A DNA stretch of 63,828 bases, filler included, from Collodictyon triciliatum (lineage: Eukaryota), in assembly GCA_043381765.1 (NCBI GenBank). It is 24 parts of 24 records of this genome, joined end to end, with 100 filler letters (N's around TTAATTAATTAA, not from the genome) between each part and the next. Parts side by side here need not be neighbours in the genome. Positions count along the whole stretch, not along the records: positions 50,638 to 53,196 come from JBHJMP010008672.1; 23 more parts are not named here. One strand, 5' to 3'. Both the position numbers and the translations under genes were made by a program. The notes under the pieces are model-generated. The model was given only the letters and a program-made list of their open reading frames with translations. It was not told the DNA's origin and did no database searches. Below are positions 50,737-51,070 of the stretch, piece after piece. How positions within the stretch are numbered: the stretch's first letter is position 1; each line of letters starts with the position of its first letter.

Positions 50737-51070
50737 AAATTTGCGGGTCTATCTTGTGAAACTATTCCGACTGTCTTTAAAGCTTCTAAAAAAACTTTTT
50801 ATCGATTGTTGGGAGCTGTTGTGATTTCAATATGTAACACCTTACAAGCAGATAAGTGTCGGTAACCAAATTATGACACAATAAAACCGTATCGTCGATT
50901 TTGTCATAGTCATCTGCACTCTTTACAATCGACTTTAAGAGATTTTTTTTTTCCTTTATTCGATTCAAAGTGTAGCGAGGTTATGCCATACAAAGGGGCG
51001 GGATGGGAGCGCATACAATCGACTTTAGAGATGATTTCAATTTTAATAAAACTTTAGTCAATCGGTCAAT
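50737..51070 (-). pseudogene. Fanzor1-like (TnpB-derived) nuclease N-terminal fragment
   Basis: Removing the retro-insertion plus one TSD and correcting a T7 homopolymer frameshift (~50790) gives KLKSSLKSIVKSADDYDKIDDTVLLCHNLVTDTYLLVRCYILKSQQLPTIDKKFFLEALKTVGIV. This fits the Fanzor1 N-terminal pattern K.sLKSi..I...V..n.l...Y..R.YiL...LP.Id.kF....KT.G as recalled. Confidence 0.7.
50944..51013 (-). mobile_element. 70-bp 5'-truncated non-LTR retroelement end with ~19-bp TSD
   Basis: Poly(A)-tailed end near-identical to 58635-58692, flanked by TACAATCGACTTTA(A)GAGAT at 50924-50943 and 51014-51032. Confidence 0.92.

Follow-up and report, generated by a model that had tools for sequence, protein, structure and literature searches.

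The DNA analysed here, a window of 63,828 nucleotides from Collodictyon triciliatum (Eukaryota; assembly GCA_043381765.1), consists of 24 contigs of ~2.56 kb with N44-TTAATTAATTAA-N44 spacers between them. One of these contigs, at 50638-53196, carries a glycosyltransferase family 92 (GT92) gene at one end and, at the other, three short pieces of a Fanzor1-like reading frame on the minus strand, interrupted by an insertion and lying in AT-rich DNA (~30% G+C) with many short open reading frames. In the following list the pieces are numbered in the direction of the gene, and P0001 is the protein of 648 residues that matches them best:

50638..50735, no strand assigned: microsatellite (TTGGTTTT)12.2, running to the contig end (TRF: period 8, 12.2 copies, 100% matches)
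50736..50792, minus strand: piece 3, FLEALKTVGIVSQDRPANL, equivalent to P0001 residues 77-95 in the REC region (tblastn, 14/19 identical, frame -2)
50788..50794, minus strand: T7 homopolymer, site of a -1 frame shift between pieces 2 and 3 (from the sequence and its reading frames)
50789..50935, minus strand: piece 2, 49 aa, KSIV...IDKKFF, equivalent to P0001 residues 27-77, from the end of the first WED strand into the first REC helices
50924..50942, minus strand: target-site duplication, downstream copy, 19 nt (14-nt exact core 50924-50937)
50943..51013, minus strand: insert of 71 nt, 5'-truncated, with AATAAA followed by an A10 tail, a copy of a dispersed retroelement-like repeat
51014..51031, minus strand: target-site duplication, upstream copy, 18 nt (core 51014-51027)
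51014..51073, minus strand: piece 1, reading K IDRLTKVLLKLKSSLKSIV (frame from the six-frame listing)
51074..51745, minus strand: upstream non-coding stretch, repeated in other sequencing runs with uneven depth and joints
52092..53195, minus strand: GT92 gene (Pfam PF01697, E 6.2e-24), separate from the relic

Excising 90 nt, the insert plus one copy of the flanking repeat, preserves the frame, and 51014-51073 then joins 50789-50935 (by hand). Piece 2 is terminated by a TAG at 50786-50788; the frame of piece 3, one base off that of piece 2, is open across 50736-50798 (KVFLEALKTVGIVSQDRPANL), and the two pieces match consecutive parts of P0001. The sequence-only reading from which this work started had proposed these two lesions, a retro-insertion between target-site duplications and a single homopolymer shift, and both are borne out. 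Its restored peptide of ~80 residues stands in large part: ~73 of roughly 85 residues have homology support, but the first ~11 (KIDRLTKVLLK) match nothing. The sole part of piece 1 that does match the family is LKSSLKSIV (51014-51040), which in a hand alignment corresponds to P0001 residues 22-30 and the first WED strand. The open reading frame is not intact: an ATG is missing, and the frame is broken by the 90-nt insertion, the -1 shift and a truncation. Neither Y19 nor T21, both conserved in the family, is retained, and the part that would correspond to a basic, NLS-like cluster recognized by eye at the N-terminus of P0001 is not conserved.

Homology to P0001 stops at residue 95, precisely at the start of the microsatellite. 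On the gene strand the array is (CCAAAAAA)n, and beyond about codon 96 it either takes the place of the gene or truncates it. The contig does end in a repeat as had been claimed, in the form of a perfect array of 12.2 copies, but this contig is one of 24 joined by N spacers. A telomere was rejected as an explanation of the 8-nt array, since a G/T-rich strand at the 5' end of a contig has the wrong orientation. The preceding contig closes at 50327-50537 with a (TTTGTT)n array decaying into a long T run; several contigs terminate in simple repeats, and assembly breaks at microsatellites look common.

An intact Fanzor1 is a protein of ~620-650 residues that binds an omegaRNA, which is itself a transcript of the 3' end of the element encoding the protein. 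It cleaves next to a short TAM, using a RuvC-I Asp, a relocated Glu and a RuvC-III Asp together with a CCCC zinc finger, as shown for SpuFz1 and others. The relic has none of these parts: when P0001 was compared with all 24 contigs by tblastn, residues 23-95 were the only ones matched, with neither the RuvC-I Asp, the relocated RuvC-II Glu and the RuvC-III Asp nor the zinc finger, and with the 3' part lacking there is no omegaRNA scaffold, the end motif of its viral relatives having 0 matches in the window. The sequence-only reading, which saw no RuvC domain or omegaRNA, was right on this point. The copies with a RuvC D-E-D that it proposed to seek by tBLASTn are not found in the 24 contigs, although the D/E/D triad and the zinc finger are present in P0001; and the alignment of 3' flanks that it suggested reveals a conserved block with a sharp end in the viral relatives, but the relic has no 3' part to compare with it.

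The insertion has the marks of a non-LTR retro-insertion, namely a poly(A) tail, variable 5' truncation, a target-site duplication and other genomic copies. The exact 14-nt core of the direct repeat, TACAATCGACTTTA, recurs at a spacing of 90 nt, and the inserted 90 nt carries in-frame stops. Over 72 nt the insert is 93% identical to 58623-58693, at the start of contig 58614-61171, and 33 nt of its tail recur with 97% identity in contig 16007-18573. The copy at 58614-58700 and onward is longer: its T24 at the contig start is a poly(A) when read on the minus strand, and it extends past the point at which the insert is truncated. No reverse transcriptase was found in its contig (0 Pfam families in 10 ORFs). 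An extreme case of 5' truncation is found at 16130-16182, where a copy of only 27 nt of the tail, ending in poly(A) (CTTTGAATCGAATAAAGG + A9), lies between 13-nt target-site duplications, CTTATCTGCTTCA; near 16847-16880 there is a related tail in the opposite orientation.

We aligned the Logan contigs of four public runs (X1-X4), comprising metagenomes and a run from a related organism, at a likeness of at least 85%. The insert has the highest depth of the whole stretch in all four runs, and loose ends beyond 51014 go on like the longer copy. In X4, 4 contigs cross 50937 directly into letters resembling those past the other copy of the repeat (by eye, 11/12 of the first letters agree, and 13/18), which fits copies without the insertion, that is, an empty site. 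An intron was rejected as a reading of the insertion, the insert being a copy of a dispersed repeat that some copies do without.

Each of the public runs holds at most 0.13 of the contig's sampled words, and the habitat labels of the matching runs, in rows of small share, are freshwater and subsurface. Over the GT92 part, X1, X2 and X4 contain few pieces, all near-identical (0, 1, 0, 4 and 1 differences per ~150 nt), and X3, which represents one organism, matches at ~95% likeness (12 differences in 234 nt). Positions 50743-51744 are instead covered by many pieces at 85-95% likeness, and the summed depth in X3 is 125-250 over the Fanzor part as against 1-26 over GT92; in these comparisons 50638-50742 was repeat-masked and 51756-52099 was masked or empty. 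Because both depth and divergence over 50743-51744 exceed those of GT92, the relic and the kilobase upstream of it are diverged multi-copy repeats in the organism's relatives. Within the 24-contig window the relic is present as a single copy.

Among the variants carried by the other copies (piece-2 numbering), K46E, L30F and D14N are changes towards P0001, V31A is a change away from it, two are neither, and three do not alter the residue in the reading frame concerned. There is no indel of the T run in X1-X3 among the 12 listed of 43 indels, and the -1 shift may be one that other copies of the repeat share. The upstream stretch at 51074-51745 is read as a patchwork rather than a single element because its depth is uneven and the segment 51377-51547 is skipped or replaced in other copies. 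None of 8 upstream ORFs matches a Pfam family at the cut-off, and blastn of 50738-51760 against phage records gave no match. Inside the skipped segment there is a perfect 19-nt inverted repeat with a 6-nt loop (51444-51487), which may be a small secondary insertion.

The identity of the relic was established through P0001. A search of 5.8 billion proteins with the 49 residues of piece 2 returned 13 candidates, 1 of them with E <= 10, and this was P0001, at E 1.8e-8 and with 57% identity across the whole query. Conversely, tblastn of P0001 against the 24 contigs matched only the relic's contig, in two frames and in the right order (residues 23-77, 31/55 identical; residues 77-95, 14/19; joint E 1e-16), the next contig following at E 1.8. 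We also built a profile from 118 proteins of the family (120 listed of the 243 relatives of P0001, less 2 that fell outside 560-670 aa) and ran it with filters off against the 2,481 six-frame ORFs of the 24 contigs; the piece-2 ORF scored E 9.6e-10 and the next 0.32. Piece 3 alone is not detected by this profile and matches P0001 only. A filter-free phmmer search with the 49 residues against 1.84 billion cluster representatives found P0121 (6.1e-5) and P0122 (3.3e-4), both short N-terminal fragments with the motif as in the relic, and no full-length match, probably due to the short query. P0001 and the relic share two states that are absent from the other 117 sequences, an extra residue at V87 and Pro92, and Leu55 of both is found in 1 other of the 117.

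The relic peptide has no Pfam family at E <= 10 and 0 PDB matches at E <= 10, and the direct match to Fanzor or TnpB proteins that the sequence-only reading had envisaged was not obtained. Because the relic alone lacks such matches, its assignment to Fanzor1 rests on one close homologue and the profile, and the comparisons support a transitive link, from the relic to P0001 and its family and from there to Fanzor1 proteins of solved structure.

In a phmmer search of the PDB, P0001 matches the Fanzor1 proteins of Guillardia theta (GtFz1, 9CER; E 2.1e-28), Parasitella parasitica (PpFz1, 9CF0; 2.7e-24) and Spizellomyces punctatus (SpuFz1, 8GKH; 3.7e-23), with nothing else below 0.38. A profile of 18 family members (A1) gives 3.1e-55 for PpFz1, 6.1e-55 for SpuFz1 (aligned over positions 3-604) and 4.5e-45 for GtFz1, and these Fanzor1 proteins are all 3 of its PDB matches at E <= 1e-3. 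Invariant in 118/118 sequences, in P0001 numbering, are D364 (GxDPGK), G521 (YG[ND]W), E555 (NE..TSK), C562, C565, C590 and D604 (TRDxNSA), and the zinc-finger residue C587 is conserved in 117/118. In these positions D364 is the RuvC-I Asp, G521 the Gly that replaces Glu, E555 the alternative Glu and D604 the RuvC-III Asp. The Pfam-A search of P0001 gave Cas12f1-like_TNB at E 0.11, below the cut-off. By these criteria of homology and residue conservation P0001 and its family are Fanzor1, and from the conserved residues we infer that P0001 would act by RNA-guided cleavage. In Fanzors the canonical RuvC-II Glu is changed to Gly or Pro, with an alternative Glu some tens of residues downstream (Jiang et al., 2023), and the residue pattern of the family fits this rearranged site.

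The alignment with SpuFz1 also places the relic within the protein. With a chain offset of 394, H415, T416 and K419 of the structure are H21, T22 and K25, which have been assigned to the WED domain, as R96 has to REC (Saito et al., 2023). K23 of the family, the K of LKSSLKSIV in the relic, aligns with SpuFz1 K25 (WED), and the long helix of the relic, DDTVLLCHNLVTDTYLLVRCYIL, is the first helix after the K25 strand and the first REC helix. The resemblance to the N-terminal WED/REC region of Fanzor1 that was initially noted from the peptide is upheld by the matches to P0001 and the profile and by the relation of their family to the solved Fanzor1 proteins.

The 243 relatives of P0001 at E <= 1e-5 are 37-46% identical to it and are encoded on contigs of up to 149 kb; most members of the family are unlabelled metagenome proteins. 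In IMG/VR, 375 of 396 candidate stretches encode a relative of P0001, and among the best 80 of these 375 loci are many contigs of giant-virus MAGs (GVMAGs), up to 289 kb long. The nearest Atlas clusters are labelled Nucleocytoviricota 'transposase', and the precomputed label PF26935 in the Atlas output corresponds to DUF8286 in Pfam 38.1. No paper was found under 'DUF8286' or 'PF26935', and the published tables of Fanzor loci and clades may already include the viral family.

The viral relatives have the look of complete OMEGA elements. For 77 viral loci with enough flank, blastn alignments were counted between pairs under 92% identity; of 4,386 that begin within the ORF, 2,473 terminate 80-99 nt downstream of the stop codon. 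In 26 non-redundant loci a conserved block overlaps the end of the ORF and stops sharply after ...AAAGGTGTAAA; one example among the loci L002-L081 (IMG/VR) is L011:5790-5926. RNAalifold predicts, from 18 of these 26 loci, a 13-bp long-range stem that closes the block and has 3 covarying pairs, and the block looks like an omegaRNA scaffold at the right end of the element.

We placed P0001 among these sequences with a FastTree phylogeny of 56 sequences, made up of 16 viral loci, 39 of P0001-P0040 and a distant root (L001), with 64 of the 80 viral loci and P0041-P0120 left outside it. The root came from a scan of JGI metagenomes with P0001, in which 1 of 184 pattern matches encodes a relative, at 21% identity. 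P0001, on a branch of 0.99, falls inside a clade of 38 (SH-like support 0.972) that is itself within a clade of 44 (0.998), and the sister group is 11 viral loci. P0001 could thus be nested among giant-virus Fanzor1 sequences, a lead that might be an artefact in view of the root branch of 3.9 and the long branch of P0001 itself. Such nesting suggests that the element has at some time passed between virus and host.

As to the contig on which the relic lies, the closest relatives of the GT92 protein are five EukProt transcriptome proteins (41-49% identity), and together with poly(A) retro-insertions on three contigs of the window this indicates that it derives from a eukaryote nuclear genome. 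Residence of the element in a eukaryote or a eukaryotic virus is borne out by the GT92 relatives, by the poly(A) retro-insertions and by the giant-virus contigs of the family. Domains on other contigs of the window include WD40, kinase, ephrin-receptor-like, AhpC/TSA and PARP_regulatory. The last of these is in a 702-aa ORF at 26928-29033 (minus strand) that matches PF01358, a poxvirus-type poly(A) polymerase regulatory subunit / cap 2'-O-methyltransferase, at E 1.6e-12, and that could be a giant-virus-derived or a kinetoplastid-like gene. The first two contigs (window 1-5237) have 42-52% G+C as opposed to 29-41% elsewhere, which may reflect mixed sources or a heterogeneous genome.

Three other explanations of these observations deserve weighing. 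Short open frames are plentiful in this DNA of ~30% G+C, and the peptide alone matches nothing in Pfam or the PDB, but a chance open frame with no gene remnant behind it has virtually no probability given an E value of 1.8e-8 among 5.8e9 proteins, two adjacent pieces that match consecutive parts of P0001 in order, and a profile that singles out this ORF among 2,481. It is also very improbable, if somewhat less so, that the gene is alive, its T7 shift being bypassed by -1 ribosomal or transcriptional slippage or produced by an assembly error and its remainder lying beyond the contig break. The shift seems to be conserved, there being no T-run indel among those listed for X1, X2 and X3 (3, 1 and 8 contigs at 50787, respectively); a -1 slip on G-TTT-TTT-T, worked out by hand, would give FF-L-E-A-L-K, in agreement with P0001; and in the frame of piece 3 the variant 50787 T>C leaves the residue unchanged. 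Such a gene would, however, have to cope with a 90-nt insertion carrying in-frame stops, with no ATG and with 11 first residues that are not homologous, and P0001 and its 118 relatives require no shift at all. A shift placed midway along a REC helix would also make no regulatory sense, and an indel of the T run could be hidden, as 12 of 43 indels are listed.

A remnant of integrated giant-virus DNA, that is, an endogenous viral element that decayed after insertion of a virus and never was a cellular transposon, is the most serious of the three, and we still consider it unlikely. The nearest large family is found on giant-virus contigs, P0001 is nested among viral sequences in the tree, and another contig of the window has the poxvirus-type PARP_regulatory domain; even the GT92 protein has, as one of its three top Atlas clusters, one labelled Nucleocytoviricota (score 0.95). 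Against this, the closest HMMER relatives of the same GT92 protein are eukaryote transcriptome proteins (41-49% identity), Pfam searches detect no other viral hallmark on the contig at 50638-53196, and a multi-copy relic beside a single-copy neighbour is the pattern of a dispersed mobile element rather than of a single viral insert. The distinction is in any case not a sharp one, since Fanzor elements move in viruses as well as in hosts, and an insert of viral origin overlaps with the mobile-element reading.

The pseudogene is therefore the reading we prefer: 50736-51040 on the minus strand, or the stretch out to 51073, is very probably a pseudogene fragment comprising the first ~95 codons of a Fanzor1 gene. 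In the history that best accounts for its features, this copy would have lost its start codon; a 5'-truncated poly(A) retro-insertion would have struck the gene, duplicating 18-19 nt of target; a -1 frameshift at the T7 run would have broken the frame further; and the gene would now end after about codon 96, at the microsatellite and the end of the contig. Loss of the start, the insertion, the shift and the truncation would together have left the relic without RuvC domain, zinc finger or guide RNA. The host would be a freshwater protist whose nuclear genome contains the relic as one of the dispersed and diverged copies of a repeat, and the lineage of the relic would be nested among the Fanzor1 genes of giant viruses.

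That this genome hosts a Fanzor family, as the sequence-only reading had it, is supported in part, by the multi-copy repeats in public runs that also contain GT92 and by the existence of an intact relative, P0001. The suggestion that the family might be undescribed is not supported in the sense of a new kind, since Fanzor1, to which the relic is assigned, is in print for both protists and giant viruses (Saito et al., 2023). A more far-reaching interpretation, which we regard as possible though doubtful, is that the relic marks the branch of P0001 as a protist-resident Fanzor1 split off inside the giant-virus DUF8286 radiation, and that intact, active copies with their omegaRNA may persist in the genome. 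A bolder form of this interpretation, in which the family tolerates a conserved shift at the T run by slippage, is less likely still.

The locus itself is a dead fragment and of little weight; its meaning lies in what it points to. A freshwater protist that has been little sampled, and for whose GT92 protein the nearest relatives come from transcriptomes only, would carry or have carried a multi-copy Fanzor1 element, and P0001, with 648 aa and all catalytic residues, could be a source of a compact eukaryotic RNA-guided nuclease. There is also an annotation gap, in that the giant-virus family DUF8286 of Pfam 38.1 is, by homology to solved structures, Fanzor1, with a block resembling an omegaRNA at its 3' side. 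A protist branch among viral genes, in a tree that is weakly rooted, hints at an exchange of OMEGA systems between viruses and hosts, and if the P0001-branch interpretation is true, it would be a natural case of a guided nuclease swapped between a giant virus and its host.

When the relic is compared with known systems, its closest characterized counterparts are SpuFz1, GtFz1 and PpFz1. Its family can be aligned with SpuFz1 over the full length, with the catalytic residues and the CCCC pattern retained. However, the family is remote from the solved proteins (E 1e-23 to 1e-28 for a single sequence), and the relic itself preserves only ~73 homologous residues of ~640 and is broken in three ways. 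With TnpB of IS200/IS605 and IS607 and with Fanzor2 the family shares the superfamily and its core of RuvC and zinc finger, and the relocated Glu also occurs in Fanzor2 and some TnpBs (Jiang et al., 2023), but no TnpB, Cas12 or Fanzor2 chain is matched at E <= 1e-3 by profile A1, and the long REC region, which the relic samples, is a trait of Fanzor1 (Saito et al., 2023). The giant-virus DUF8286 proteins are 38-47% identical to P0001 over the full length, keep the catalytic residues and have the N-terminal motif seen in the relic; the relic differs in its place on a eukaryote contig beside a gene of cellular type, in a window where the viral 3' end motif does not occur. A last comparison is with the genome of Spizellomyces punctatus, in which 42 loci have been described with Fz genes that are full-length (19) or partial (Saito et al., 2023). 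The host is a different one and the intact relative P0001 is not tied to the genome of the relic, but by that example decayed copies beside intact ones are the normal state of a Fanzor family.
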